Below, one piece after another: positions 24,439 to 58,868 of a stretch of DNA of 64,000 nucleotides. Each line of letters begins with the position of its first letter. Positions within the stretch are counted from its first letter, which is position 1. The position numbers and the translations under genes were made by a program. This DNA comes from Caldisericota bacterium (GTDB lineage: Bacteria > Caldisericota > Caldisericia > JAAYUI01): positions 64,001 to 128,000 of the forward strand of contig JAKPMO010000002.1 of NCBI GenBank assembly GCA_029548865.1. The letters run 5' to 3'. The notes below the pieces were generated by a model, which did not search any database, had not been told where the DNA came from, and saw only the letters and a list, made by a program, of their open reading frames with translations.

Positions 24439-24469
24439 AAAAAAGAGGGGGCAAAACCCCCTCTTTTTT
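24439..24469 (-). terminator. Terminator after the giant Cys-rich gene
   Basis: AAAAAAGAGGGGG-CAAAA-CCCCCTCTTTTTT. Confidence 0.75.
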
Positions 24470-24487
24470 CAGAAAATTTGCTTAATG

Positions 24488-27400
24488 TTATTTTGGGCAG
24501 CAGTCCTGGTCCGGGAGTGCCTTCCAGCCTACTATCTCATTGTTGTCATTGATGCACAGCTCTGCGCATCCCTTGTATTGCGAGAGCTTATATCTTCTTG
24601 TTATGTCTATGAGGTCTTCATTTGCCATATAAACGGTCTCGGTCCCGTCACAGCGCTTGAAACCAACCTGCCACTTGTTGTTGGCGTACCTTACATAGCT
24701 GACGATGCCTCTTGTCCACTTGCAGTCCTGGGAACCTACACATGGGCAATCGGTGGCGGTTATTGTCGATGCATAGATGACATATTCCCCCGAGTCAAGG
24801 CGGGTCAATTTTCCGCAAACTTTCCAACATGTCCCAGGTTTTGCGAGGTAGCATATCCTGAGCATGTCGCTAGTCAGGATCACCTTTATTTCCCTGCCTT
24901 TTGCATCTTTGGTGTACAAAACTGGCGGATTTGCATTGCAGTCAGCTTTCAGGACAGTCACGCAATAGCATTCGGTTTGCCCGGAATCGCAGGGGCAATC
25001 CACTTTTTCATACTTTGTGACCTTCATTTTTGCTGGCCCACCCCTTGTTGTCGGGGCGGTCACAATACCACAGACCTTCCAGCATGTGCCTTTCACAAAC
25101 AGTTTGCATATATCCGGCCCGAGCTCCAGCATCCATGTCCTTCCGTTTGACTGTTTGCCGTATGCAATGTATTTCCCTTCTCCACAACTGCTGTCTGTTA
25201 TCTCAAGGCAGATGCATTCTTCTTTCTGGGTTTCCTGGCATGGACACTCGGTTGGTTCTAGTTTGGTGATTTTCAGCCCAAGCCCTGTGGTTGAGGCATC
25301 AATCGGATACTTTACCATCTGGCCACAGACCTTGACGCACCTTCCGGGGACGAGGTAATTGGCCCATTTCTGGCACAATTCCTTTGAAAGAACCAATACT
25401 ATCTCATTCCCGTTCTCGTCCACGCCCCAGACAAGCGGTGGTTCCCTTGTGCAGTCTACCTTTTTGATTGTAACACAGTGGCAAATTTCCTCAGGTGGTT
25501 TTTCTTCACACGGACAGTCCCTCTTTTCGATTTTCAAAAGCTTGAATGATGGTGTTGCACCGGGGTTCTCAACCCATTCGCCACAGACCCACCAGCAAGT
25601 GCCCACTTCTGCCATCTTGCACAAATCGGCAGGAACGGTCATCATGACCGTCTTCTCGCCGATCTTTACATACAGTATGCCTTTCTCACAGTCCCTTCTG
25701 AGTACCTCCATGCAGAAACAGTCAGGTTCTTGTTCTTTGCATGGGCAATCGACTGGGTAGATTTTTGTCAGCTTCAGCACTTTGATGGACACCGTGTCGC
25801 TTATGGCAATCTTTGACCAGACGCCACAAACTTTGATGCATTTTTCTGGCACCAGATAGTTTGCATACCTGTCGCACATCCAGCTTTCGAGAACTAGGGT
25901 GATCTCATTGCCGTTTTCATCGACACCCCAAATCATGGGTGGTTTTGCCGTGCAGTCGACTTTTTTGATCGTGACGCAATGGCATATTTCTTCTGGCGGT
26001 TTTTCTCCACACGGGCAGTCAACCACCTTGATCAGGGAGATTTTCCATGCAATCTGCCCATCTGCCAGTGTTGTTTTGGTTCCACAGACTTCAATGCATT
26101 TGCCTGAGACGAGATAATTGGCGTATTTGTCACAAAGCTCTTTTGAAATCACAAGCACAATGGCGTTTCCGGCCTTGTCCTTGCCCCAGATCATTGGCGG
26201 ATCACTTTCGCATGAAACCTTCTCGATAGTCACGCAAAAACATTCTTCCTTGGGGAGCTGTACGCACGGGCAGTCGACCTGGTTTATGTAGGTCAGCTTT
26301 AATGCCAGTGCGTCAACATTGGGCGCCAAAGCGACCTTGACCATTTTTCCGCAGACCTTGAAACACTTGCCAGGGGAGAGTTTGTCGCCAAACTTCTCGC
26401 ACAGTTCTTTTGTCAGCAGAATGTTTATTTCGTTCCCGTTTTCATCGACACCCATCGCAATTGGCGGGTCTGAATTGCAATCTACTTTTCTTAGTGTCAC
26501 ACAGTGGCAAATCTCCTCTGGTGGCTTATCGCAGGGGCAGTCCCTCTTTTCGTATTTTGTGACCTTAAAATAGGGTGCTGCACTAACCTGCTCTGACCAC
26601 TCGCCACAGACCCACCAGCATGTTCCTGGCTCTGCCATTTTGCAAAGCTCTGGAGGGACCATCAACATGATGGTCTTTTCTCCGATCTTTGCGTACAAAA
26701 TTCCGCGTTCGCAATCTTTTTTCTCAACCTGGACACAGAAGCAGTCTGGTTTTGGCCCCTGTTTGCACGGGCATTCAACAGGGACGATTTTTGTCAGTTT
26801 AAGCACTTCAATGGACACGGTGTCGCTTATGGCAATCTTTGACCAGACGCCACAAACTTTGATGCATTTTTCCGGTACGAGATAATTTGCATACCTGTCG
26901 CACATCCAGCTCTCAAGCACCAGAGTGATCTCGTTGCCGTTTTCATCGACACCCCAAACCACTGGCGGTTTTGCTGTGCAGTCTACTTTTTTGATCGTGA
27001 CGCATCTGCAAATTTCTTCTGGCGGTTTTTCTTCGCATGGGCAATCTGTCTGGCTTATTTTTGTTACCTTCCATACGACAAGTCCGCTTGCAAGCGTTGT
27101 TTTAACTGCACATACCTCGACGCACTTTCCAGGGCCAAGCGCCTCAGCATACTTCAAACATATCTCTTTGCTGACTGCAAGCACGACCTGGTTCCCTTTT
27201 TTGTCCTTGCCCCAGATCATTGGCGGGTCCTGGTCGCATGCAAAGCGGTCAATCGTTACACAGAAGCACTCTTCTTTTGGTTGCTCCGTTCCACAAGGGC
27301 AGTCCCTCTTTTCGTATTTTTCAACCTTGAAATATGGGACAGCACCAGCAACCTCGACCTTTCTTCCGCAGACCCACCAGCATGTTCCGGGCTCTGCCAT

Positions 27401-29887
27401 CTTGCACAGTTCGGCTGATACCGAAAGTATCAGGGTCCTGCCATCGATTGTTGCATAAAGAAGTAGATTCTCGCAATCTTTCTTTTCGATCTTTACGCAG
27501 AAACAGTCAAGCTTTGTTTCTTCCTTGCATGGGCATTCCACCGGGGTGATTGAGGTGACTTCCATATATAGCGCAGAACTTAATGGGCTTGGCTTTGGCA
27601 CCCCACAGACCTTTAAACACTTGCCTGGGACAAGATAGTTGGCATACTTGGCACAGAGTTCCTTTGAGAGACCAAGCGACCACCGTGTTTGTCCACTCTC
27701 GTCTTTCCCAAGTGCCGTCGGGTTCTCACTTGTGCAGTCTACCCTTTCCAGCGTTATGCACAAACATTTCTCTTTTTGCGCTTCACAGGGGCACTCGACA
27801 GGCGCTATTGATGTGACCTTCATTATGACTGCAAGCGTTGAATCCGTGATTATGTAGCAAACTTTCAAGCACTTTCCAGGGACCAGATAGTTTGAATATT
27901 TTTCGCAAAGCTCTTTCGAGAGAAGGAGCGAGAAAAATTTTCCGTTCTCGTCTTTGCCATAAAGCATTGGTTTGTCCGAATTGCAGTCAACCCTCTCTAT
28001 CGTCAGGCAAATGCAATTTTCCTTTTGTTCCTTGATCTTGCACTTGGAACAATCGACCTTTTCTGCCCTTATGACTTTCATCCAGGGCGGGCTGTCGACG
28101 CGGATGATTTCTGGCGGATTTCCACACACCATCCAGCAGGTTCCAGGCTGCATGTCGGCGCACCATTTTGAATCAACGTAGAGTGCCCAAAGCTTGCCAT
28201 TTTCATCATAGCCATAAACGGTTGGCTGGGTTGCATTGCAATCCACGCGGTCAATCTTTACGCAGAAGCATTTTTCATCTGGTTTGCACTGCTCGCACTC
28301 GATTTTTTCAAATCTTACAACCTTGATCCTCTTCGCCTGTACATATGTTGTTGCTGTGGATTGTGGTTGGACATGCCCGCAGATTATGTAGCAGGAACCT
28401 AGTTTCAGCTCCAGGCACATCTTCTCGTCCAGTTCCATCACCCACGGTTTGCCGTTTTTGTCGGTGCCCCATGCCATTGGCGGTGCGCTTGCACAGTCGA
28501 CCTTTTCGATCTTCATGCAGAGACACCTTGGTGCCTGGTTGCCACCGCATGGGCAATCGACTTTTACCGCCCTTGTAACCTTCATTCTTGGCGGGAAGGA
28601 TGCAGAAATGGTATTTGCAGTTGTCACCCCAACAGTCCCGCAAACTTTCCAGCATGTTCCAGGTGTCATTTGCTGACAGAGGCTGGCATCAACTTGCAAG
28701 ATCCATTTCTGGTTCTTTTCATCGACACCATAAACAACAGGAGGGTTTTCCGAACAGTTCTGGGTTTCAATCGTTACGCACATGCACTTGTAGTCCGGGT
28801 ACGGCTCTGGTTTGCATGGGCAATCGGCCTGTTTTACGACCGTCGCGATGAAATAGGTGTTTAGAGCTGTTGCTGTGGTTGGTGTTGAGGCACCTTGCCT
28901 GATTGAACCACAGAATGTGTAGCACCCGCCTTCCTTTACTTTAAGGCACAGTTCTTTTGAAAGGTATATCCGCCACTCTTTGCCATTGGCATCTTTTCCA
29001 TAGACAACTGGCGGTTTTGCATTGCAGTCAACCTTTGATACTGTGACACACATGCACCTTCTGCAATTTGGGTCACCAAACAGCAACTGGACAATCTTGG
29101 TGGCCTCGAACCATTTGATGTCTTCGGGGCCTGTTGCGCCAAGGTTTTCGGCCACAAACCTCATTGGGAGGACTGTCCTTCCACCCACTATGAAGGCAAC
29201 CACTTGTGGGTTGTTCGGGTCAATCTGGACAGGATTTCCATTTACCTTTGCTGTTGGATTTCCGATCTGGATTTCCAGCGTCTGGCCATCGAGTGTTTTT
29301 ATTGCGACGGTTTTTGTCGATGCGTCATAGGCAATCGTTGCTCCGATTTCCTCGGCCACATACCTTATGAGCAGGAACATGCGGTTTTGTGTAAGAATTG
29401 GTGCCGCCTCCATCGGGCCTTTCTGTACATCCCCAGATTTGTAGTATTTATTGCCAATCTGGTATTCCAGCATCAGCCTGCAATCTTCATTCTCTGGCGG
29501 TATTTCCTCAGGAGGATTTTCGCAAGTTGGTGTCCCGCAGGCCTCTTTGGATTGTGTAAACTCATTTGCATTTGCATCCACTGCCCTGACAAAATAACAA
29601 TATTTTGTGCCATTTATGATGTTGATTTCATCTTTGAATACATTATCCGGGATTGGAAAATCTGTCAGCGGGGTGTCGAATTCGGCGCCCTCGGAGGGGC
29701 CCCTGTAAATCCAGTAGTTTATTGCTCCTGCTACTTTCTCCCATTTGAGCACGTTGTAGCCACAGCCTGGTGTTACCTCCAAACTAAACGTTGGTGTAAG
29801 TGAATATGTGTTGCTAAAAGAGAATGGAGTAAAAATAGAGCTTGTCATGGCCAGAACGGTCAGCCAAATAAATAGATTTCTCCTCAT
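24488..29887 (-). CDS. 1799-aa secreted protein: Fn3 + copper amine oxidase-like stalk domain + 17 tandem 8-Cys repeats + divergent C-terminal Cys domain
   Basis: AAAGGAG SD; signal peptide; Fn3 (LKW..YWIYR..YCYFVRAVD); stalk motif GRTVLPMRFVAENLGA; repeats CxC-x7-C..C..GxCxxxCG..CPC. Confidence 0.92.
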   Translation of the reverse strand: MRRNLFIWLTVLAMTSSIFTPFSFSNTYSLTPTFSLEVTPGCGYNVLKWEKVAGAINYWIYRGPSEGAEFDTPLTDFPIPDNVFKDEINIINGTKYCYFVRAVDANANEFTQSKEACGTPTCENPPEEIPPENEDCRLMLEYQIGNKYYKSGDVQKGPMEAAPILTQNRMFLLIRYVAEEIGATIAYDASTKTVAIKTLDGQTLEIQIGNPTAKVNGNPVQIDPNNPQVVAFIVGGRTVLPMRFVAENLGATGPEDIKWFEATKIVQLLFGDPNCRRCMCVTVSKVDCNAKPPVVYGKDANGKEWRIYLSKELCLKVKEGGCYTFCGSIRQGASTPTTATALNTYFIATVVKQADCPCKPEPYPDYKCMCVTIETQNCSENPPVVYGVDEKNQKWILQVDASLCQQMTPGTCWKVCGTVGVTTANTISASFPPRMKVTRAVKVDCPCGGNQAPRCLCMKIEKVDCASAPPMAWGTDKNGKPWVMELDEKMCLELKLGSCYIICGHVQPQSTATTYVQAKRIKVVRFEKIECEQCKPDEKCFCVKIDRVDCNATQPTVYGYDENGKLWALYVDSKWCADMQPGTCWMVCGNPPEIIRVDSPPWMKVIRAEKVDCSKCKIKEQKENCICLTIERVDCNSDKPMLYGKDENGKFFSLLLSKELCEKYSNYLVPGKCLKVCYIITDSTLAVIMKVTSIAPVECPCEAQKEKCLCITLERVDCTSENPTALGKDESGQTRWSLGLSKELCAKYANYLVPGKCLKVCGVPKPSPLSSALYMEVTSITPVECPCKEETKLDCFCVKIEKKDCENLLLYATIDGRTLILSVSAELCKMAEPGTCWWVCGRKVEVAGAVPYFKVEKYEKRDCPCGTEQPKEECFCVTIDRFACDQDPPMIWGKDKKGNQVVLAVSKEICLKYAEALGPGKCVEVCAVKTTLASGLVVWKVTKISQTDCPCEEKPPEEICRCVTIKKVDCTAKPPVVWGVDENGNEITLVLESWMCDRYANYLVPEKCIKVCGVWSKIAISDTVSIEVLKLTKIVPVECPCKQGPKPDCFCVQVEKKDCERGILYAKIGEKTIMLMVPPELCKMAEPGTCWWVCGEWSEQVSAAPYFKVTKYEKRDCPCDKPPEEICHCVTLRKVDCNSDPPIAMGVDENGNEINILLTKELCEKFGDKLSPGKCFKVCGKMVKVALAPNVDALALKLTYINQVDCPCVQLPKEECFCVTIEKVSCESDPPMIWGKDKAGNAIVLVISKELCDKYANYLVSGKCIEVCGTKTTLADGQIAWKISLIKVVDCPCGEKPPEEICHCVTIKKVDCTAKPPMIWGVDENGNEITLVLESWMCDRYANYLVPEKCIKVCGVWSKIAISDTVSIKVLKLTKIYPVDCPCKEQEPDCFCMEVLRRDCEKGILYVKIGEKTVMMTVPADLCKMAEVGTCWWVCGEWVENPGATPSFKLLKIEKRDCPCEEKPPEEICHCVTIKKVDCTREPPLVWGVDENGNEIVLVLSKELCQKWANYLVPGRCVKVCGQMVKYPIDASTTGLGLKITKLEPTECPCQETQKEECICLEITDSSCGEGKYIAYGKQSNGRTWMLELGPDICKLFVKGTCWKVCGIVTAPTTRGGPAKMKVTKYEKVDCPCDSGQTECYCVTVLKADCNANPPVLYTKDAKGREIKVILTSDMLRICYLAKPGTCWKVCGKLTRLDSGEYVIYASTITATDCPCVGSQDCKWTRGIVSYVRYANNKWQVGFKRCDGTETVYMANEDLIDITRRYKLSQYKGCAELCINDNNEIVGWKALPDQDCCPK
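24491..29056 (-). repeat. Intragenic tandem array of ~255-bp Cys-rich coding repeats with a ~1026-bp higher-order duplication
   Basis: Identical ~53-bp blocks at 25794 and 26820; TTGTCCTTGCCCCAGATCATTGGCGG at 26175 and 27201 (offset 1026). Confidence 0.9.
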
Positions 29888-30299
29888 ATAGTGCTCCTTT
29901 CACGTGACGAAATATATGCAACAAAATCAGTCGTAGCTAATATTAAATTGCTCTTTATATGCGCTGTCAATAAGTGGATTTTTTTATAATCTCAATTTTA
30001 TTTGGACCCTGTTTGTGATTTTTATCTGTTTGAATATGTCTGTTGGGCATTTTTCCTGTTTGGAAAATCTTGTATCTCTATTTTTATGGTGTTTGAGTTT
30101 TTGCTTTTTTCTTCTTTAATGCAAGTTTTGATCTGGCAGAAAATATTTTCGCCTTGTCGGTCGTGTTTTTTTGTTTGTTGTCAAATTGTGGCCCAAGTTA
30201 AGGATTTTGTTAAAAAGACAAGGTCTTGTCCGTGTTTATTTAAACTGGCCTATCTATAATAAAAACATGGGTGCCAAAGACAGGCAAGGAGGGTTCAGA

Positions 30300-33200
30300 A
30301 TGAGGAGAAATTTTGTTTTTTCGCTTTTGGTTGCAGTTCTTGTATTTTCAATCTTTTTTGTCAATATGCCACATATTTTTGCGCTGCTGGGGCCTATCCA
30401 TGTTGAGCTTAATATTATGGGAGATTCACCATCCTCGGTGAGGGCTGGCCAGGCGACTGCTTTCAAAATCCACATCAGGTTTAATGTAAACATCAGGGTC
30501 CACGACTGGGTGAAGGTCTGGTTCCCGATTGACGAGGCCTCGTGCAAGCTGGAGGACATCTGTGACGGGATGCCGAAAATCACTGGCGCAAAAGAGCACC
30601 CAAGGTTTGTGCCAAATGATGAGTACTTCAAGAAATACAACAACGAAGAGGAAGCAAAAATTGGGAAGCTTTATGAAGCGCTAGATGATAGAAGGGGAAA
30701 AACCAGCTTTGAGAAATGCGAGTGTGAGGATGGTGCTCCGCCGTACAGCAACTGCGCACCTGAGGGCAATTGCAGGATAATTGCCGATCCATCTGGCCTG
30801 GGGTGCTGGATGACCGGTATGGTCATGCCTGCACTGCCAAGAGATGAAAAAAAGCGTTATGAATTAATGCATTCGATAATACATGAAGCAAGGCTTGGTT
30901 ACTATGATGATTGTTATTGCAGTGGTATACCAATAATTATTAATACATACAAAGAGCGATCTTTGCAAATCAATTCCCCACTCGAAGTCGAAGCATGGCG
31001 GAAGGGATACAATCCAATTGATTATAATATTGGAAAAGGGGCTGGCATCCTTGCCCCGATGACACCCGGAAGATACAGGCTTTCTGTTGCAACAGCGCCG
31101 GAGCCAACGCCTGTCGAATCGGAATACTTTGTTTTCCCGTGTTCCCAAATTTCAAGGCCGGTCGTGACGCTTGCTGGTTCCGATCCGGGCGAGCCAAGCG
31201 ACATTGCAATAAAATTCAGTGTTGGCGATGGTGGCGCACTGGACAAGGGAAAATCGAAAATCTGGGTGCGCTTTCCAGAGAGTTTTGTTTTTCCGGAGGC
31301 AATAAATGCCAGGCATGTAAAAATAAACGGGGATACCCTTGAGGCAAGCCCAAAGATTGACAGCCAGTCGCACGCCATCGAGATCACCTGTCCGGTGAAC
31401 ATAAATAATGCTGGAGAGGTCAACATCGCCTTTTCCCCAGAGGCCGGAATAAGAAACCCTCCCAAGGAGACAGAGGCAACACTTACCGTGTGGACAGACC
31501 CGGAACCGGAAAAAGTCGAGTCACTGCCGTTTGTGGTCGAGACGAAGCCAAGGGTGGAAGTGAAACCCAATATCTTCAGCAACATTGCCGAATATTACGC
31601 AGTGGCTTTGCTCCCCGACGGGCCAATAAAGGCCGGAAAGGAATTCAAAATCATTTTCCCGGACGGCACTTTGCTGCCAGAAACTATTGCCTCTTCAAGC
31701 ATTGTTCTTAATGGAAGGAAGTATGACGGAAAGACATCGATAGGCTGGCAAACCGTTTCGCTCAGGTCGTACTTCGACATTGTGGATGCCCTGAAAATCA
31801 GGTTCCTCAAAACTGCCGGCATCAGGAACCCCCTGCCCGGCGAATACGAGCTCTCATACGAAGTGGATGGCAAGGGGTATGCTTTCCCAAAATACATCAT
31901 TTCAGACAGGCATGAAGTCCTTGATCTCATGCTAAGCGACTACCAGGGCTGTGAGCGGTCCGGATACAAATTCACCTACATACCATCCTACAGAGGTGAT
32001 CTTGAGCCTGGCGACAAGCTGACGGTGGAGTTCCCGTGGGACACAAGCATTCCGAAGGTGATACCAAATGACGCAGTTCTGGTTGGCGACAAACCTTCAA
32101 GATCGGTGTCGGTTGACGGCCTCAAGCTCACCATAACAACAGACACGGCAATCAAAACTGCAGATGGCGGTGCAGTTGTGTATATCACATGGGACGCTGG
32201 TATCATAAACACGAGATATTCCGGGAAGTACAATCTCAAAATCTGGACAGAGAAGGATGAACCGGTGTTTTCTCCGGAATTTGCCATCACCATGCCAAAA
32301 GTGGAATCATGGCTTGAATTCAAGGACCCTGCACAGCCGGATGGCCTTGAATATGGTGGCTGTCTCTGGTACAAGACGCCGCCAATCCTCTCGATAACAA
32401 GCTGCAATCCTCTTGCAAAGATATTTATGTGGTACGACAACAAGACCGATTCAATCAGACAATACACCGGTGAAAAGAGGCTGGACTATGGCTTGTTCCG
32501 TGCAACAATCTGGTATTACGCACAGGTTGGAGACATCAAGGAAGAACCGAAATTCATGCATCTTTGTCTGGATACGGTTATGCCAAGGTTTTCGATCGCC
32601 AAACCTGACAAGCAGGTAGTTATTGCCAATAAAAGAACTTACGTTGTCAAAGGCGAACGCGAGCCATGCGAAATGCTCACCGATGGTGACGCTGAAAAAT
32701 ACCAGGCAGTTGACGGCATTTATGTCAACGGCAAGGAGCTCCTCGCCCCGGAGATATTTGAGACCGTGAGCAGGGACGAGATTAAAATGACCTTTGAGAC
32801 AACGATTGACCTGAAAGAGGGGTCAAATGTTGTCGAGATAAGGGGCATTGACCAGGCAGGAAACGAGAAGATTGAGAAGAGAACAATTATTCTGGACACC
32901 ATTCCACCAACAATAGAAATTGTTCGGCCGGACCCAAAAGAACTCCAGAAGCCGGGTGAAAACATCGCAATCCAGGTCAAGTCTGAGACCGATGCCTCAG
33001 TGTTTATCGACGGCCAGATTGCCCAGAAGATAGAGGAGCTTCCAGATGGGAAAACAGCCATCTTTGAAGGTGTCTGGGATGTCGTAGAAGGCGAGAACAA
33101 AGTTAAAATCTTTTCCACCGATGTGGCGGGGAACACTGCAGTAGCCTACCTCACATTCAAGGGTGGAACAAAGGCTGTTACCATCGAGCTCTGGATTGGA

Positions 33201-33608
33201 AAGACCGACTTCGTGGTCAACGGGAAAAAGATGCCAAATCTCGCCACAGCACCAACAGCCTCTTCGCCACCACTTCCAAAAGCATTTGCTGGCACAACAT
33301 TCATGCCGATTGCTGATGTCGCAAAAGCGCTTGGCGCGGAGGTCAATTGGGATGCAAAAACCAAAATGATTGCACTTACTCAAACCCTCGACAATGGCAC
33401 CAAAAAAGTCATCCAGCTGTGGATTGGCAAGAAGCAGGCAAAGATTGACGGCAAGGAAGTCTGGATTGATGCAAAAAAGGTCCTTTACCCAACAATCATC
33501 TCTGGAAAGACGTTGCTTCCGCTCAGGTTTATCGCCGAGAACCTGAATTGTGACGTGCAGTATGATGCAAAAACAAAAAAGATAACACTGACCCACCCAA
33601 AACCATGA
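30300..33608 (+). CDS. Large secreted multi-Ig-domain protein with C-terminal copper amine oxidase-like stalk domain
   Basis: AGGAGGG SD; signal peptide; repeated FP....P..I....V.ING..AGIRNP modules; DQAGN/DVAGN Ig domains; GKTLLPLRFIAENLNC. Confidence 0.88.
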   Translation: MRRNFVFSLLVAVLVFSIFFVNMPHIFALLGPIHVELNIMGDSPSSVRAGQATAFKIHIRFNVNIRVHDWVKVWFPIDEASCKLEDICDGMPKITGAKEHPRFVPNDEYFKKYNNEEEAKIGKLYEALDDRRGKTSFEKCECEDGAPPYSNCAPEGNCRIIADPSGLGCWMTGMVMPALPRDEKKRYELMHSIIHEARLGYYDDCYCSGIPIIINTYKERSLQINSPLEVEAWRKGYNPIDYNIGKGAGILAPMTPGRYRLSVATAPEPTPVESEYFVFPCSQISRPVVTLAGSDPGEPSDIAIKFSVGDGGALDKGKSKIWVRFPESFVFPEAINARHVKINGDTLEASPKIDSQSHAIEITCPVNINNAGEVNIAFSPEAGIRNPPKETEATLTVWTDPEPEKVESLPFVVETKPRVEVKPNIFSNIAEYYAVALLPDGPIKAGKEFKIIFPDGTLLPETIASSSIVLNGRKYDGKTSIGWQTVSLRSYFDIVDALKIRFLKTAGIRNPLPGEYELSYEVDGKGYAFPKYIISDRHEVLDLMLSDYQGCERSGYKFTYIPSYRGDLEPGDKLTVEFPWDTSIPKVIPNDAVLVGDKPSRSVSVDGLKLTITTDTAIKTADGGAVVYITWDAGIINTRYSGKYNLKIWTEKDEPVFSPEFAITMPKVESWLEFKDPAQPDGLEYGGCLWYKTPPILSITSCNPLAKIFMWYDNKTDSIRQYTGEKRLDYGLFRATIWYYAQVGDIKEEPKFMHLCLDTVMPRFSIAKPDKQVVIANKRTYVVKGEREPCEMLTDGDAEKYQAVDGIYVNGKELLAPEIFETVSRDEIKMTFETTIDLKEGSNVVEIRGIDQAGNEKIEKRTIILDTIPPTIEIVRPDPKELQKPGENIAIQVKSETDASVFIDGQIAQKIEELPDGKTAIFEGVWDVVEGENKVKIFSTDVAGNTAVAYLTFKGGTKAVTIELWIGKTDFVVNGKKMPNLATAPTASSPPLPKAFAGTTFMPIADVAKALGAEVNWDAKTKMIALTQTLDNGTKKVIQLWIGKKQAKIDGKEVWIDAKKVLYPTIISGKTLLPLRFIAENLNCDVQYDAKTKKITLTHPKP

Positions 33609-51150: not shown

Positions 51151-53010
51151 TTGAGAAAAGCATTCTTGATTGTCATGCCAGCTATTCTGCTTCTGTGCTC
51201 CTGTGGTGCGCCCCAGGACAAAAACACCCAGGCTCCAGGTATTTACAGGAAGGCAACCAGCCAGGAAATGTCCCTTGCAGTAACTTTTTTACCTGAAGGA
51301 TGGAGTTTTTCTTCCCCCATTGTGGTCGATATCGGCCAGAAATACCTCTTTGCTGAAGCCGTGAAGTACGACAAGGGTGGAGGAAAGAGTGAAAGATTCA
51401 TGGCATTCAGGATTGATGGGGACTTGGTGCTTGATGTTTATGATTCGCTGCCTTCGCGATTTCGTATAGTTGATGACAGCGGCATTTCCAAAAACCATGA
51501 GACCAAATACAAGGTTGAATCTGACCTTTTCCCGGAAGATGGAAAACCTGTACAGGAACTTAATGGTGGGGCATACGTTCCTGTCTGCTGGACTGATGAT
51601 GATTATCCGGCAACATGGTCGCCAGTCTACATTATCAGAAACGACAAGGTGGTTTCCCTGCCAATGTGGCCCAAGGTTTTACAAACCATTGTTGGCCCTG
51701 CCAAGATTGGAGAAGAGAACGTCCTGGTTTCCATTGAGCTTGAGTCTTTAACAAGGATCAGTGCATCCTCCGAAGAGCCAATTTATGTTCCAGCAATTTA
51801 TGCTCCTGCAATCGACAGGGTGATGAAGAAAAAGGACGGCATCTGGGTAGATGCGTGCGAGGAGTTCCAGAGCTATGGCCAGAAGAAGGCCGATGAAATA
51901 CTCGACACGCCAAATGGGGAACTTGATTTTGAGAACCTGAGAAAGGTCTATCTTTATGGTCTTGTCTATGGTTTCAAGGACGAGGCAATCAGGAAGATTG
52001 AATCCAGGATTGAAAGCGACCCCAATTTGAAAAACAACCCTTTGGGCAAGGACAGGGTATTCATCAAAAAAATAACATCAGAAGACGACTATCAGCCGAT
52101 ATATCCTGGAAGAGAGGAAGCAAGGCTCTTCCTCCAACCTAGCCCAAAAAGGATGGAAGCTTTCAGGTCAGCTGTTGACAAAAAGTATGTGGTGGAAGCC
52201 GTCAGAATGGCTGATAGCAACTCGCTTTTTGCGATTACAAGCACACAGGGGGATGATGGCCAGCAGGAGAAAGCCCTCTTTTTCGCCTCTTTTGCCGGAG
52301 ATTCCATTGCCAGCCTTTACAAAACCAGCATTTCCGGCCTTGCGACCTTCGGGTTTATGGAAGGGGCAGACCTCTGGGGTTATGAGGGTCTGGCGCCATT
52401 TCCGGTTTATCCTGTCGGTGTCAATGAGGTTGGCGATTTTGAGCACCCGCGCTCGATTGTTTTCAAGGTTGAAGAAGACAAGCCTGTCCAGGTCCCTTTT
52501 GAATTTGAAAAGGGCGAAGTGGCAAGAGGTGTAAAGGTTGTGGGTGAAAAGGCCTACATTTACGCCATAAGCGAGCACTTTGGGTCACCATTTGGAATTG
52601 CCTACAAAGACAGGCTGATGGAGTATTCAGGCGACTCATTCAGGGAAATCTGGCCCATACTAAGTAGCATGCAGGGAAAGGCTGTTAGTGATGATTATGA
52701 GAAGAACGGCCTGGAGCTTCTTATAGACGCAAAAAAAGCTTTATTGTCCAAAGAAGAACTGACCGATTATTACTCGTACTACTCGGCAATTGATGCGTGG
52801 TTTTGCTTTGAAACCGGGATGTCAATTGATATCCATGGCCAGAACATTATTGATTTCATGAAAACTTTGCAAAACAAGCGCAATTTTGACCAGGCGTCCG
52901 AAATGGCGACCAAGATGCAGGGAGCCCTGAAGACCAGCAAAAAACTCACCGAAGTTTGGGGCGAAGAGCAGTTGGAATATCCACCAGTTTCATGGGAGAA
53001 GATAAAATAG
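51151..53010 (+). CDS. Hypothetical lipoprotein (two related halves)
   Basis: AGGAGGG SD, TTG start, lipobox LCSCG. Confidence 0.8.
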   Translation: MRKAFLIVMPAILLLCSCGAPQDKNTQAPGIYRKATSQEMSLAVTFLPEGWSFSSPIVVDIGQKYLFAEAVKYDKGGGKSERFMAFRIDGDLVLDVYDSLPSRFRIVDDSGISKNHETKYKVESDLFPEDGKPVQELNGGAYVPVCWTDDDYPATWSPVYIIRNDKVVSLPMWPKVLQTIVGPAKIGEENVLVSIELESLTRISASSEEPIYVPAIYAPAIDRVMKKKDGIWVDACEEFQSYGQKKADEILDTPNGELDFENLRKVYLYGLVYGFKDEAIRKIESRIESDPNLKNNPLGKDRVFIKKITSEDDYQPIYPGREEARLFLQPSPKRMEAFRSAVDKKYVVEAVRMADSNSLFAITSTQGDDGQQEKALFFASFAGDSIASLYKTSISGLATFGFMEGADLWGYEGLAPFPVYPVGVNEVGDFEHPRSIVFKVEEDKPVQVPFEFEKGEVARGVKVVGEKAYIYAISEHFGSPFGIAYKDRLMEYSGDSFREIWPILSSMQGKAVSDDYEKNGLELLIDAKKALLSKEELTDYYSYYSAIDAWFCFETGMSIDIHGQNIIDFMKTLQNKRNFDQASEMATKMQGALKTSKKLTEVWGEEQLEYPPVSWEKIK

Positions 53011-53039
53011 CTTTGAAACATCGGAACGGAAGGATTATC

Positions 53040-53969
53040 ATGTCTAATATGAAAAAAGTTTTGCCTTTGTGTGTTGTTTTGCTGTCCACTCTGTCTCTTC
53101 TTTCTTGTGGGGCTCCCCCGAATGATGGTGCTGGCAAAACCTTTGAGGAACGCATTGCAAAGTTTATCCCGGCTGATTTCAATGTTGCAGAAAAAAGAAA
53201 CATGGCTGGTGAGAACGTCTTTGTCCTGGCAAAAAGTCCCAAATCGGGCATCGCCCAGTACATGGCAATGATTGTGGATGATTCTGGCGGGGAATTGAAA
53301 ACGGTAAAGCAAGCAAAACCTTTCAGGGCCGAAAATGTCCAGCTGGCACCAGAACGCCAGTGGGGAGCGAAGCTTTCTGGTGATGAAAAAGGTTATGCAA
53401 TCATGATAAAGCTTGGTGGAGACAGACTTGAAGATACATTTGTCAAAGTCCTTGACAATTCCTTCAATGAAATCCCGAACGAGCTTGGCCCTGGCTATGT
53501 CACAAGAGATTTTGAGGACGTAGATTTCGATGGCAATTTCGACATCATAGTGCTTGACACGCGCTGGTCCAGGCTGGCAAAAATCTTGGGGAGCCAGCCT
53601 TATACGCAAAGAGTCTGCACCTACAGCGATGGCAAGTTTGTGCTTGACGATCCAAGGTTCAAGGACCGCTATGATGCTGGAATAAAGGCGTTTAAGGCCA
53701 AGCTTGATGAAGAAGCGCAATATGAAAACGAGGCTTTCTACTATTCCCTGAACCTTCTGCTTGTCCAGGAGGCGCTTGGACAGACAAAAGATGGACTCTC
53801 GAAGTTCCAGGCCTTTATAGGGACACTGAAAGACGAGAAACTTATCGGGCTCGGAAAAGAACTCCTTGGTGCTTTTACCTCCCAGGCTTCAAAGGGAGAA
53901 AAGCTGTCCGATCCTCTCTGGAAACCCTACAGTGCCCAGGCCTGGGAGCCACTTTTCTGGAAGGATTAA
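53040..53969 (+). CDS. Hypothetical lipoprotein with DxDxDG motif, probable paralog of the upstream gene
   Basis: Lipobox LLSCGAP (upstream: LCSCGAP); DVDFDGNFD; start at MSNMKK. Confidence 0.78.
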   Translation: MSNMKKVLPLCVVLLSTLSLLSCGAPPNDGAGKTFEERIAKFIPADFNVAEKRNMAGENVFVLAKSPKSGIAQYMAMIVDDSGGELKTVKQAKPFRAENVQLAPERQWGAKLSGDEKGYAIMIKLGGDRLEDTFVKVLDNSFNEIPNELGPGYVTRDFEDVDFDGNFDIIVLDTRWSRLAKILGSQPYTQRVCTYSDGKFVLDDPRFKDRYDAGIKAFKAKLDEEAQYENEAFYYSLNLLLVQEALGQTKDGLSKFQAFIGTLKDEKLIGLGKELLGAFTSQASKGEKLSDPLWKPYSAQAWEPLFWKD

Positions 53970-54030
53970 ACTTGGCTCAGCAAATATTACTTGACCTAAA
54001 AACCGACTTGTATTATATAAACATACGCGC

Positions 54031-54106
54031 TGCCGGATGGTGTAATTGGTAACACGCCTGACTCTGGATCAGGAGACTCTAGGTTCGAGCCCTAGTCTGG
54101 CAGCCA
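54031..54106 (+). tRNA. tRNA-Gln (CTG)
   Basis: Acceptor TGCCGGA/TCTGGCA, anticodon arm CCTGA-CTCTGGA-TCAGG, GGTTCGAG T-loop, encoded CCA. Confidence 0.96.
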
Positions 54107-54120
54107 AAAAAGAGGAGAAC

Positions 54121-54195
54121 GGCGCCATAGTATAATGGTCAGTACAAGGGGCTCTCAATCCCTAGATAGGAGTTCGATTCTCCTTGGCGCTACCA
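54121..54195 (+). tRNA. tRNA-Glu (CTC)
   Basis: Acceptor GGCGCCA/TGGCGCT, anticodon arm AGGGG-CTCTCAA-TCCCT, GTTCGATTC, encoded CCA. Confidence 0.95.
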
Positions 54196-54216
54196 ATTGC
54201 GTCAAGGAAACACCAT

Positions 54217-54241
54217 AAAGGCCCACAAAGGGCCTTTTTTT
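54217..54241 (+). terminator. tRNA operon terminator
   Basis: AAAGGCCC-ACAAA-GGGCCTTTTTTT. Confidence 0.8.
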
Positions 54242-54289
54242 GTTTTTTGTGGTCTTGAGGGAATTGCCACTCAATGGTATTATTTGGGC

Positions 54290-57235
54290 ATGATCAGGAC
54301 AAAGTTTTTGGGGATATGCCTTTCCTGCATTATTCTTGTGGGGTTTTCGTTTCCCATAAACCCTCAAATCCTTAGCGTTGTCTCTGTTCCAACAAGACTT
54401 CATTTTGAACTTGATGCCTATTGCTCGATAGGCAAACTTGATCATCCTGCTTTTGCAAACGAGGAGTTTCCTCAATTTTCTTCCTTTCCAAGATTCAAAG
54501 TGGCCATTGTGCCTGTTGCTACCGATACTAGACTCAATGGAACAAACCTCAAAAGACTCATTAATGTAAAAGATTTTGCAGATTATATTTCTTTTCATGC
54601 CCCAAATCTCAAGCTTGTGCAGCTCGGTGAAAGCTACACCTATTATCAAAATGGCCAGCCGGTCAACACGGGCAAGCTTTACAATGCGCTCACGGTGTCG
54701 TCCGATGATCCAAAAAGCGTCAAGGAGAGGATTGAAGCGACCCTTTCAAACAAAAAGGTCAATTGGACAATGCCGGCTGCTGAGCGCAGTTACTATGATG
54801 TCAGGGTGTTTGCGTCGCCAGATCCACCCTTCTCACTAGGAGAACTGACCAGCGACAAAAAATCTCTTGCCAATGGGGCCTTTCTTGACCAGCTTTCCCA
54901 GGGCTATTTCCCGGAGAATGGTTTTGCAAGGGAGAACGTAAAATTCAATGCTTGCCAGCCGTATACCGTTGTACCTGTTATTGTTGCGCAAGACAATTTC
55001 CTTGATTTCATGTTCAGGCCCGTCGGGACAGTTTTCGAAGAGGTTGGTGGGGAATATGTCCAAAAGCCCTCTTCCGAGTCAGCATGCGCAATAAAATCCA
55101 TTTTTCACGATGTTATTTTTGATCAAACAAGCTCTTCAATGGGTTTTGATGGTGTCATGGACATGACGATCAAAACCAAGTTGAGATATAAAAATGAGTT
55201 CAGGTTTGACTATTCGGTTGATCCACCGGAAATAGCCGGTCTTTCAGCGTTGCCGCTTGCAACATCCAACAATGGTGTTTCAAGCATGTTTGAACAGTCT
55301 GGCAAAAACCATCTTGTTCAGGGTTTCATGTCACTGGGAAAATTGTACAGGTGGATGCCGCAAACTGACCCGGCGTATCCAAACCAGAAACTGCTCATAA
55401 AGCCCGCCGTCAGAGACAGGGTACTTGCAGATGGGACTTACTGGGAACTTTCAAAATTCAGGGTCCATTTTCCAGATGCCACGCTTGTGGATGGGAAGGT
55501 GGAGGTCACCGAAAAGTTTGTTGATGTCTCCCCCATCAAGTTTGATGAGATATCACAGGGGAGATTTGCATACTTCACTTTCACAAATAATCCACTGCTG
55601 GAAGGCGCCGATTCGACCTTCTTCGTGGAGAAAATAGACAGGCCTTTCAGGGTTGAGGCAGTGTATGAACCGGGCAGACTTGGTGCCAGAGGAAAGCAGA
55701 ACACTGCCGAATCAACAAGGCTCAAACTTTTCTGGTCGGCGACGCCACAAATGAAGGACCTGGCAAAGAGAAAAACCCAGGAATATGGGGAAAACTGGTG
55801 GAAAAAAGCTTTTCCAACTTACTACAAGATCGTTCTCAAGGGTCCGGACGGCCAGAAAACATTTGACAAGATAAATCCCATGCAGGAGTCAATGATTGCC
55901 GATGGGTTGAAACCAGGCGCCGAATACTCATGGGAACTACAGACGTGGGTATCTGATGCCGAGGGTTCACCCCAGCTTGTCGAGACCTGGAAATCCGATT
56001 TTGTCAAAACAAAGCCTTTGCCGCTCCTTGTCGGCCACTGTGGCCAGCCTTCAATCATCAAGGTAAAAACAGCCGTTGATGTTGATGGTGATGAAGTTTG
56101 GGTAATATCGGCCCCAATGGCGTATGAGCTGGGCCTGACAAAATTCCAGCCGCTCTATTTTATGGCCAAGCCAACATCTTTTGGGCAATTCGAGAAACTC
56201 CTGAAATCAAAAACATACTATACGGTCGTTGAAAAAGATGATCAAAACTATCTCAGGGCCTACATAAAAGTATCGGCCTTCTCCGACTCGTATGAAAAGG
56301 ACGATCAGGGAAGAAATATCATCCACCTTGAATTCCAGCCTGTTGAAGTCAGGGTGGAAGGCGAGGCTGTTGATGAATTCATGCAACCCATTGGCAAATC
56401 CCTCGGCGGACATGCCGGAACGTGGTGGCCTGCGAGGGACGGCCCGTCAACCTCGTCGTTGAGGGTTGTTGAGGCCCCCCTGCTTGTCAAAACCAACAAA
56501 CTCTATCGCTTCAGAAGATGGACCTGGGTTGGTCCGATTTATGCACTGAGGACCCCAATCGAGGACGCTGAAAAGGGTATCGCCGTTTTGTTTGCCAATG
56601 TTGATGGTTGCCAGGCGAACCCTGACAAATATGTAAAGCCAAAGATATATGCCGTTTATGATACTGTGCCAGTGGATTGTTTTACGGTCACCTCAGATTT
56701 CGCAATCAACTGGAAACCTGTTGCTTACAGTGGAAGAATACCTATAAAACCGGAAGGTGATTGCCCGGGCAACTCCAGCGCGTATATGGCCGGAACACAG
56801 GTATCAATCGGCCCGGCACCAAAAGAGATTGTTATTGAGGAACTTAAATACAAATTTGTTGGTTGGATAATTGGTGAGAATTCGATTCCTGGAAAGGAAG
56901 TCTTAACCATAAACGTTGACAAGTCATACAACGTCCTGGCCAACTACCAGCCGGCCAATGATAGGTATGAGCTGTTCTTCTTTACTGACGCTGATGGCAG
57001 GCGCATAGACCTCAGACTGAGCGTAAATCCTCCACCAGACAAAGACGGTCTCTATAAGGCCGGAACTGTCGTAACGGTCGGCCCAGCACCACTAGAGCTC
57101 GATGATGGCAAATACTCATTTGCAGGTTGGGCGCTGGATGGCAATATTGTTGGGACTGATTTCAGGACAAATTCAATCCAGGTGACCATGGACAAAGCCC
57201 ACAGGCTCATCTGTCTCTACAAGCTCGGCGGGTAG
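54290..57235 (+). CDS. Large secreted hypothetical protein with an Fn3-like domain and C-terminal InlB B-repeat-like modules
   Basis: Signal peptide; GLKPGAEYSWELQT (Fn3); Y.AGT.V..GPAP..Y.F.GW...(I/V).(V/M)DK repeats. Confidence 0.75.
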   Translation: MIRTKFLGICLSCIILVGFSFPINPQILSVVSVPTRLHFELDAYCSIGKLDHPAFANEEFPQFSSFPRFKVAIVPVATDTRLNGTNLKRLINVKDFADYISFHAPNLKLVQLGESYTYYQNGQPVNTGKLYNALTVSSDDPKSVKERIEATLSNKKVNWTMPAAERSYYDVRVFASPDPPFSLGELTSDKKSLANGAFLDQLSQGYFPENGFARENVKFNACQPYTVVPVIVAQDNFLDFMFRPVGTVFEEVGGEYVQKPSSESACAIKSIFHDVIFDQTSSSMGFDGVMDMTIKTKLRYKNEFRFDYSVDPPEIAGLSALPLATSNNGVSSMFEQSGKNHLVQGFMSLGKLYRWMPQTDPAYPNQKLLIKPAVRDRVLADGTYWELSKFRVHFPDATLVDGKVEVTEKFVDVSPIKFDEISQGRFAYFTFTNNPLLEGADSTFFVEKIDRPFRVEAVYEPGRLGARGKQNTAESTRLKLFWSATPQMKDLAKRKTQEYGENWWKKAFPTYYKIVLKGPDGQKTFDKINPMQESMIADGLKPGAEYSWELQTWVSDAEGSPQLVETWKSDFVKTKPLPLLVGHCGQPSIIKVKTAVDVDGDEVWVISAPMAYELGLTKFQPLYFMAKPTSFGQFEKLLKSKTYYTVVEKDDQNYLRAYIKVSAFSDSYEKDDQGRNIIHLEFQPVEVRVEGEAVDEFMQPIGKSLGGHAGTWWPARDGPSTSSLRVVEAPLLVKTNKLYRFRRWTWVGPIYALRTPIEDAEKGIAVLFANVDGCQANPDKYVKPKIYAVYDTVPVDCFTVTSDFAINWKPVAYSGRIPIKPEGDCPGNSSAYMAGTQVSIGPAPKEIVIEELKYKFVGWIIGENSIPGKEVLTINVDKSYNVLANYQPANDRYELFFFTDADGRRIDLRLSVNPPPDKDGLYKAGTVVTVGPAPLELDDGKYSFAGWALDGNIVGTDFRTNSIQVTMDKAHRLICLYKLGG

Positions 57236-57260
57236 CTTGTAACAGTGAAAGGAATGATTG

Positions 57261-57902
57261 ATGAAACAAAACGGTGTTAAACTCTCTACTGCAATAATTC
57301 TTGCCATTGTAGTTGGAATTGCCTCATATTTTGCAACAGCTTTTTTCATTGGTGCGTGGCCTTTTGAGAAGGCAAAGCAGCCAACTACAAAAGACCTTCT
57401 AAAGGAATCTGGGTCACAGGATGGCTCACTTGAAGGCCTGTTCCCTGATGGAAAAGGCACTTATGGCACTTCAGATGGTTCGCAAAAGACATTTGATGGT
57501 TTTTCCATAGCCTTTCCAGATAAATGGCTCTATATGAGAATGCAAGATTCTGGCGTTGTTACTGGCCTGGATTCGCTTGATCCGATGGCCTCGGTTCAGG
57601 TGCTAAAGCTTTCGGGGAAGGACGTTCCCGAAGGTGACCCGGAAAAGGCACTGGATGAAATCCTCAAAACAACCGATGATAGCAAAATCGAAATCATAAG
57701 CAGAGAAAAGGTAAAATTTCTGGACAAGGACTGTTCACTTTTTCTTGGCAAGACCAAGAGGATGGACAAGGAGATCGGGATGATAACGCTTGTTGTGCCA
57801 AGCAGCAAGGACGCTTATGTCGTAATGGGCACTTTTAATGTTGATGATGGCAAAACCAAAGAAATTGTTGAAGATGTTATTGCGACATTCAGGCTAGAAT
57901 AG
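57261..57902 (+). CDS. Single-TM hypothetical protein (PsbP/DcrB-like fold possible)
   Basis: N-terminal TM; FSIAFPDKW and C-terminal VIATFRLE typical of PsbP-like domains. Confidence 0.65.
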   Translation: MKQNGVKLSTAIILAIVVGIASYFATAFFIGAWPFEKAKQPTTKDLLKESGSQDGSLEGLFPDGKGTYGTSDGSQKTFDGFSIAFPDKWLYMRMQDSGVVTGLDSLDPMASVQVLKLSGKDVPEGDPEKALDEILKTTDDSKIEIISREKVKFLDKDCSLFLGKTKRMDKEIGMITLVVPSSKDAYVVMGTFNVDDGKTKEIVEDVIATFRLE

Positions 57903-57908
57903 AAATAA

Positions 57909-58868
57909 ATGCTGGCGCTTACAAGAATTCTGCAGCTCCTTGACATGTTGTTACAGGCAGGTAGCAGAAAGCTCACAAGTGCTGAAATATCAAACAAGCT
58001 TGAGATTTCAAGACGCCAGATCATAAGGGACATAGACAAACTCAGAGACGAAGGTTTCAACATCCGCTCTGACATGAACGGCTACTGGCTTGAAACTGCG
58101 CCTGATTTAGGCAGTTTCGGGTTGAGCAAGTTTGACAAATTTGTGATTACAACAGGGCTTGGGAGGATAATCGATTCAAAAGACCCGTGTCTTTCAAGGA
58201 TAGCCCAGGAAATCATTGAAAAGATCACAAACGAGAATCCCCAGACTGGTAGAGAAAAACCGGTCGATGAATTCAAGGTTGTCTATCTCAACGAGATAAA
58301 AAAAATCCAGAAAATAAGAGTTGCCATAGACTCAATGGTTGTGATCAATTTCAAGTACGAGCGTCCCAACAAGCTCGATGAAAAGCTCAGGAAAGTCAAA
58401 CCATACGAGCTTTTTTTCAAGAGACATGCCTACTATATGATTGCAATGCCAGAAGACAGCGACACTCTTATCATGTACAGAGTCAACAGGATGAAAGATA
58501 TAACACTCACCAGAGAGAGGTTCGTCAGAAGGCCCATAGATTTGAACAGCCACCTTTCAAACGCTTTTGAAGTGATGATTACTGGGCCGGTTGAAGACGT
58601 CGAAATACTGTTCAAAAAAAGTGTTGCGCCTTTTGTGTCGGAGCTTGTATGGCACAGCACGCAGAAAATAACTAAGAATGATGATGGGAGCATTATTTTT
58701 AAGGCAAGAGTTGCGATCAACCACGAGATTTTGCGCTGGGTGATGGGATATGGTAACGAGTGCGTTGTAGCCAAGCCAGAGCAACTCAAGCAGATGGTCA
58801 TAGAGCAAACAAAACTAATGCTGGAGGACTATCTTGACCAAAAGTCACCAAATGTCATTAATGCTTGA
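57909..58868 (+). CDS. HTH-WYL-WCX transcriptional regulator (YafY/PafBC family)
   Basis: LEISRRQIIRDIDKL HTH; R.VKPY.L....AYYM; YRVNRM; WVMGYGNECVVAKP. Confidence 0.92.
   Translation: MLALTRILQLLDMLLQAGSRKLTSAEISNKLEISRRQIIRDIDKLRDEGFNIRSDMNGYWLETAPDLGSFGLSKFDKFVITTGLGRIIDSKDPCLSRIAQEIIEKITNENPQTGREKPVDEFKVVYLNEIKKIQKIRVAIDSMVVINFKYERPNKLDEKLRKVKPYELFFKRHAYYMIAMPEDSDTLIMYRVNRMKDITLTRERFVRRPIDLNSHLSNAFEVMITGPVEDVEILFKKSVAPFVSELVWHSTQKITKNDDGSIIFKARVAINHEILRWVMGYGNECVVAKPEQLKQMVIEQTKLMLEDYLDQKSPNVINA

Follow-up and report, generated by a model that had tools for sequence, protein, structure and literature searches.

A predicted secreted protein of Caldisericota carries 17 tandem eight-cysteine units modeled as OB barrels and probably stapled by disulfides

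Small OB-like barrels arranged in tandem occur in secreted proteins of the DUF5666 family (PF18914), for which we know of no function. The same five-stranded barrel is found in PriB, SSB, RPA, and Teb1, where it is cytoplasmic or nuclear and, in RPA and Teb1, also tandemly repeated. The TIMP/NTR module, a secreted OB fold with disulfide bonds, has a CxC motif at its N terminus, and inhibition by TIMP requires a free N-terminal cysteine. Long surface proteins with tandem repeats and an anchor at one end have been described as fibrillar adhesins (10.1101/2020.12.07.414375), and one PF07833 domain of the kind found in surface proteins mediates homodimerization (PMC10432803). As outlined in PMC12453122, obligate anaerobes tend to exclude cysteine from exported proteins, and their disulfide catalysts are poorly known; anaerobes are described there as having DsbA-like or AhpC/TSA catalysts that lack a membrane partner and are recycled by small thiols.

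The gene considered here lies in a 64,000-nucleotide stretch of the genome of a Caldisericota bacterium (GCA_029548865.1, contig JAKPMO010000002.1, positions 64,001 to 128,000), which we call the window. It encodes a predicted secreted protein with a cysteine fraction of 8.2%, which ranks first among the 838 stop-to-stop frames of at least 300 amino acids genome-wide (median 1.3%). Its parts, in window coordinates, are the following.

24488 to 29887, minus strand: gene for the OB-repeat protein, 1,799 amino acids with 148 cysteines (open reading frame and cysteine count)
29813 to 29887, minus strand: probable Sec signal peptide, residues 1 to about 25 (judged by eye)
29513 to 29791, minus strand: Fn3-like domain, about residues 33 to 125, with four cysteines (profile match to PDB 3mpc, E value 3e-4)
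29090 to 29416, minus strand: PF07833 (Cu_amine_oxidN1, "stalk") domain, residues 158 to 266 (74.3 bits against a cut-off of 24.2)
24740 to 29056, minus strand: 17 type-A units, residues 278 to 1716, predicted eight-cysteine OB barrels with linkers of 5 to 9 residues (alignment, AlphaFold2, fold search, cysteine covariation)
26336 to 27304, minus strand: units 8 to 11, the first copy of a four-unit block from an old duplication (72% DNA identity over 972 bp)
25310 to 26275, minus strand: second copy of that block, units 12 to 15 (72% DNA identity over 972 bp)
24491 to 24724, minus strand: type-B unit, residues 1722 to 1799, a predicted six-cysteine OB-like barrel that is tandem in relatives (model and relatives)

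The type-A units hold 136 of the cysteines, and the N-terminal head and the terminal domain hold six each. The original prediction, made from the DNA alone, had described 17 tandem units with a fixed eight-cysteine pattern and about 136 cysteines, and the alignment bears this out: the units are 78 to 90 residues long and share 22 to 90% pairwise identity, and all eight cysteine columns are invariant. A regular expression for the pattern finds 18 starts; the match at residue 1206 is the CPC with which unit 11 ends, leaving 17 units. The divergent eighteenth cysteine domain was also correctly spotted, but it is a separate repeat type rather than a decayed unit. The Fn3 domain placed after the signal peptide is matched by the 3mpc profile, whereas a Pfam search of this part of the head gave no match. 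The PF07833 domain does lie near the N terminus, as had been pointed out, while that of each of the five other PF07833 proteins among the 41 window open reading frames scanned is C-terminal; genome-wide, only 8 of 86 such proteins carry it within the first 30% of their length. The domain resembles those of PF07833 surface proteins in scoring above the cut-off and differs from them in being N-terminal, behind an Fn3-like domain. We presume that it serves as an envelope anchor or a dimerization module.

The Fn3 plus PF07833 head also carries unrelated cargo in two paralogs (L033:8049-11630 and L035:8233-11862). In both proteins, Pfam finds PF07833 alone; the His-Gly and cysteine motifs of the cargo resemble those of clan CD proteases. 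Elsewhere in the window, a divergently transcribed 1,145-residue PF07833 protein (30171 to 33608) has a cysteine-rich N-terminal part without a family match, and four open reading frames of 214 to 1,012 residues without a Pfam match (51151 to 57902) adjoin a WYL-domain regulator (57909 to 58868).

We rejected the possibility that the array is an assembly artifact. The block duplication is the longest internal DNA repeat and the sole long one, and because its copies are just 72% identical, the array does not look like a collapsed or duplicated assembly. Moreover, two congeners carry a complete gene for 1,797 residues with 148 cysteines and 17 units, arrays are present on two single-contig genomes (G006 and G010), and contigs from RNA libraries cover the gene, as detailed below.

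Sequence searches place the repeat in no named family. With type-A units, Pfam gave only summed weak OB matches, NCBIfam nothing useful, PDB sequences no match at E values up to 10, and the ESM Atlas no usable match; type B reached scores of 0.80 or less there. A search of 1.84 billion representative sequences matched only 30, one of which (P0025) we set aside as an Ig-repeat protein. We found no description of the array family in the literature covered, which mostly comprised journals outside subscription.

To see the shape of the repeat, we turned to structure prediction. AlphaFold2 modeled units 12 and 13 with a pLDDT of 85 and a pTM of 0.48, each unit being a closed barrel of five strands and one helix in the order b1-b2-b3-helix-b4-b5. 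The domains are thus confidently predicted, and their mutual orientation is not fixed, a pattern that fits the beads-on-a-string arrangement proposed earlier. A complex prediction with two copies of the two-unit fragment returned a score of 0.00, which is no answer and counts neither way. A VIA fold search with type A returned OB domains as best matches (PriB 4gs3, Z 11.1, rmsd 1.9, 79 residues aligned). The model and this search support membership in the OB-fold superfamily, as the OB-like small barrel of the original prediction implied. The type-B model (pLDDT 95) appears OB-like at Z 7.8, in the range where the tool warns of generic matches. Profile comparison of types A and B gave no significant alignment (probability 5%); by eye, they share a CxxxC strand. 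Type-B units occur up to nine in a row in relatives, and since 54 of 66 keep all six cysteines, their pairing cannot be fixed from losses. TIMP/NTR gave no Pfam match to the protein and is absent among the best 50 fold matches listed; unlike TIMP, the internal repeats have no free N-terminal cysteine.

The fold brings to mind a filament outside the cell that would bind nucleic acids and capture or retain eDNA, as the tandem OB domains of RPA, SSB, and telomere proteins do with their nucleic acids. Domains that bind single-stranded DNA are the top fold matches, with PriB, SSB, RPA, and Teb1 at Z 10 to 11; the summed PF01336 score is 59.7 against a cut-off of 27; and an outward beta2 aromatic residue and a beta5 lysine are common. 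Yet no single stretch passes PF01336, only 3 of the 17 units match it at all, and identity to these fold matches is 5 to 17%. With a net charge between -3 and +3 in 16 of the 17 (pI 5.8), the units are close to neutral, and, unlike the proteins matched, the query is secreted and predicted to be cysteine stapled. Function does not follow from a shared fold, and we regard DNA binding as quite improbable.

Paralogs in the same genome connect the array to DUF5666. The genome encodes several related secreted OB-repeat proteins, located on contigs C22, C11/C26, and C9 in addition to the query. One is a 1,420-residue DUF5666 protein with about 13 units, mostly with two cysteines each, and a C-terminal PF07833 domain (C22; L059:1339-5598); another is split over two contigs, the end of C11 and the start of C26 (L023 and L022), whose translated ends overlap. 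Profile comparisons link cysteine-free DUF5666 units to the two-cysteine C22 units (98%), these to the C26 units (97%), and these to the query units (97%), with C3 and C4 of the pattern aligned along the C22, C26, and query steps. Against PF18914, C22 scores 96.7 bits and the C26 part 34 bits (cut-off 27), whereas neither the 1,799-residue protein nor its 17 units match. Compared directly with cysteine-free DUF5666 units, type A reached a probability of only 0.1 to 0.2%, and against a local DUF5666-like profile, its units did no better than shuffled sequences. The score of C22 on that local profile is circular because the profile included a unit of the C22 ortholog; the link between C22 and DUF5666 therefore rests on the Pfam score and the profile chain. 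Since the stepwise links hold but the direct comparison fails, we consider the query a derived relative of DUF5666 and not a member by score, which qualifies the earlier remark that the repeat was not recognized as a named family. Judged by these profiles, the array is a variant of secreted DUF5666-like OB arrays, sharing their tandem small barrels and differing in its eight invariant cysteines and units of about 85 residues. Across the paralogs, the number of cysteines per barrel rises from 0 to 2, 4 to 6, and 8.

How the eight cysteines pair can be read from the units that have lost some of them. We compiled 315 nonredundant type-A units, leaving out 12 listed redundant or fragmentary proteins, P0025, 19 of 350 low-scoring units, and units more than 70% identical. 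Among the 105 possible matchings, C1-C6, C2-C8, C3-C4, C5-C7 ranks first: of 221 incomplete units, 109 agree with it, whereas the second-best matching accounts for 93 and the median matching for 9; these counts overstate independence because units are related by descent. Each single-pair loss is seen in 5 to 10 different proteins of the full set. In the query's subfamily, the 166 gap-free units were counted after 12 paralog-like proteins and 17 gapped units had been set aside. The full set of eight cysteines is present in 94 of them, 60 of the 72 incomplete ones have lost whole pairs, and the count is even in 155 of the 166. The main exception is the joint loss of C1 and C2, seen in 17 units and in none of those tabulated for the subfamily; as we interpret it, this loss fits paralogs with an alternative upstream cysteine. 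This pairwise loss points to four structural disulfides rather than four-ligand metal sites.

The original prediction had left the choice between disulfide stapling and metal binding open; the disulfides are favored, indirectly, by the pairwise losses, and tetrahedral metal sites are disfavored. A metal-binding chain, in which cysteine pairs or quartets hold Zn, Cu(I), Hg, or a similar metal as a sponge or structurally, would account for the lack of a recognizable oxidase (see below) and for six of the eight cysteines apparently lying on one outer face (b1, b4, and the C-terminal CPC, deduced from residue alternation). Lower down the list of fold matches are SilB and SilF, OB proteins that bind metal, and two-coordinate bis-thiolate sites are compatible with the covariation. 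Against it, the cysteine pairs disappear independently of one another, and some units retain just one or two of them, whereas ligands of Cys4 or CysHis metal repeats are kept as fours with Cys/His exchange. Lost cysteines are replaced mostly by T, E, S, K, V, and I; His takes their place just 10 times, and the whole protein contains 4 His. We therefore give metal binding little credence.

The array is a family trait. A two-unit profile detected it in all 11 genomes of one Caldisericia family. Of 82 genomes from elsewhere in the phylum, two matched, and in the one of these that was inspected, units of types A and B follow the same head. Family genomes carry several paralogs each, and array DNA also occurs in sludge, digester, and wastewater metagenomes. 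Orthologs range from about 1,330 to 3,191 residues, with the number and order of A and B units varying freely. One ortholog, in G006, has an in-frame TGA in a linker (L026:8703-8705) with about five further units in frame behind it, which may reflect a nonsense mutation or an error in sequencing. Compared with three congeneric sequences, no cysteine has changed and pN/pS is 0.04 to 0.16, indicating that the gene is under purifying selection; diversifying selection was not seen in this comparison.

We next considered expression and genomic neighborhood. Three features flank the gene.

29965 to 29970, minus strand: TTGACA hexamer, a possible -35 element, kept in two congeners (sequence comparison)
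29894 to 29900, minus strand: Shine-Dalgarno-like AAAGGAG, 6 nucleotides before the ATG (sequence)
24439 to 24469, minus strand: hairpin resembling an intrinsic terminator, downstream of the stop codon and flanked by T/A tracts on either side (hairpin scan; ends of RNA contigs at 24461 to 24480)

The TTGACA site was not among the calls of a consensus promoter scan. In three studies, contigs from RNA libraries span most of the gene; these runs were found by searching with the gene and are contigs, so they speak to its presence in RNA and not to expression level. Their ends at the hairpin hint weakly at a monocistronic transcript. A beta-propeller lipoprotein is encoded downstream in 5 of 7 genomes of two other genera, and four of the five best match the window's propeller. 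We do not favor an operon with this lipoprotein because a hairpin follows the stop codon here and, by eye, in most relatives. In those two genera, all six genomes with upstream DNA have a cluster of Fur, rubrerythrin, ferritin, and flavodiiron genes head-to-head with the array gene; in the query's own genome, this cluster is about 70 kb away.

Taken together, these observations incline us, by a modest margin over even chances, to the view that the protein is a wall-tethered, load-bearing, disulfide-stapled surface fiber or adhesin that binds matrix, glycans, or partner cells. After Sec export, the Fn3 plus PF07833 head would hold the protein on the envelope of a cell that probably has a single membrane, and the chain of 18 small OB barrels would extend outward from it. 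Omp85 was not found, consistent with the single membrane, and the occurrence of this head with unrelated cargo in two paralogs is in keeping with such an arrangement. In each type-A barrel, four intradomain disulfides (the pairs given above) would close the fold. Because C2-C8 would tie the first and last residues of the unit together, a pulling force would be carried by the linkers and disulfides and not by the barrels. The resulting tether, at most about 70 nm long as estimated from linkers of 5 to 9 residues, would resist both proteases and force. Surface residues of type-A units vary widely, as does the beta4-beta5 loop; this loop and the outward beta2/beta3/beta5 face could offer many weak sites for the matrix of flocs and granules, for glycans, or for partner cells. 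Speaking against this, the exposed beta2 aromatic residue is retained by just 53% of units of the query's subfamily.

The free variation in unit number and A/B order resembles that of fibrillar surface proteins. Like fibrillar adhesins, the query would be a long surface protein with tandem repeats and an anchor at one end, its elongation being predicted; unlike in them, none of the adhesive domains or anchors listed in 10.1101/2020.12.07.414375 was detected, and the presumed anchor is N-terminal. The main text of that study does not contain the terms "DUF5666," "OB-fold," "amine oxidase," or "disulfide." Pfam, NCBIfam, and PDB sequence searches of the protein revealed no known adhesive domain. 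A coat or spacer without a specific ligand, such as the subunit of a sheath or an S-layer-like mesh, would share much of this evidence: the array is present with several paralogs in every family genome searched, its surface residues are widely variable, and the gene has its own terminator and RNA coverage. A lattice, though, is poorly suited by a more than twofold range of ortholog lengths and shuffled unit order, and the low pTM predicts no fixed geometry between units. For these reasons, a plain coat seems to us a slim prospect.

The fiber reading requires that the bonds be made, and here the genomes hold a puzzle. The surprise expressed earlier at such cysteine density in a secreted protein of an anaerobe stands. 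No DsbB or VKOR scored above the cut-off in 41 genomes, and neither of two DsbA families was found in the query's own genome (93% complete). That genome (G000, 1.8 Mb) encodes 86 PF07833-like proteins among 1,459 crudely called open reading frames. All 83 complete ones contain cysteine (content, 1.59%), with even counts in 36 and odd counts in 47; a further test on 76 proteins gave 31 even and 45 odd, both with crude trimming of signal peptides. Since cysteine is universal in these proteins without an even bias, the envelope tolerates it without a general signature of oxidative folding, and neither the enzymes nor the even counts of DsbA-DsbB/VKOR substrates were found. The absence of the even-cysteine bias argues against routine oxidative folding and is the main result against the fiber reading, which the presence of CcdA, part of a reducing route, in all 11 family genomes also weakens. 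Of the 41 genomes, a single one has cytochrome bd, and COX1 was not found in the query's own. The cytochrome bd subunit I gene (L026:1-887, in G006) lies beside the oxidative-stress cluster.

The bonds would then have to form without DsbB or VKOR, perhaps by way of exported TlpA-like thioredoxins or small-molecule oxidants. The query's genome has 10 thioredoxin matches, nine of them apparently exported as read from sequence and three carrying PF07833; the latter are candidate wall-tethered thiol oxidoreductases. In these three, exported thioredoxin-like CxxC domains are fused to PF07833 (C29:16225-22533, C18:63991-64917, and C18:64847-65761), one of them within a 2,049-residue protein resembling a peptidase. 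A separate cluster (L050:7391-13041) combines arsR, a small thioredoxin, a PF07833 propeller protein, two exported thioredoxins, ccdA, an ArsP-type permease, and an SBF-family transporter. The partner-free catalysts of PMC12453122 offer, by analogy, one possible oxidation route. TatC is present, and Tat export of a protein preloaded with metal may be conceivable, yet the RR pair of the signal peptide is not kept in most relatives.

Alternatively, as a surface thiol-redox buffer, the protein would carry its pairs as dithiols while the digester is reduced. Oxygen, peroxide, or polysulfide would oxidize them, so that each chain could store as many as 148 electrons and the coat would stiffen, with CcdA and exported thioredoxins re-reducing the pairs. 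In keeping with this, no oxidase was found, yet CcdA, which belongs to a reducing route, is in 11 of 11 family genomes alongside several exported thioredoxins; exported proteins show neither even-cysteine bias nor cysteine exclusion; and the head-to-head oxidative-stress cluster recurs in the two other genera. That cluster, however, may reflect ancestral synteny because of its distance here, no conserved Fur-like box tied to the array gene was found, and 10 genomes from other families have CcdA without the array. Four stereospecific pairs per barrel and the stepwise cysteine ladder of the paralogs look like progressive stabilization, and we judge a redox buffer unlikely. Somewhat less doubtful, although we still would not expect it, is the bolder proposal that dozens of disulfides made without DsbA, DsbB, or VKOR reflect either an undescribed anaerobic oxidation route or a redox-switched armor, a 148-electron store that locks inextensible on meeting an oxidant and is reset by CcdA and wall-tethered thioredoxins.

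If the disulfides form as predicted, the protein would be an extreme counter-case to the exclusion of cysteine in anaerobes, with up to 74 pairs per chain, family-wide and with no recognizable oxidase. It would provide a defined substrate, together with a short list of candidate catalysts, for the study of anaerobic disulfide formation. The paralog series suggests stepwise stapling of a single fold and gives a structural handle on DUF5666. With its variable loop, an OB barrel stapled end to end could, in addition, make a stable scaffold for binding.
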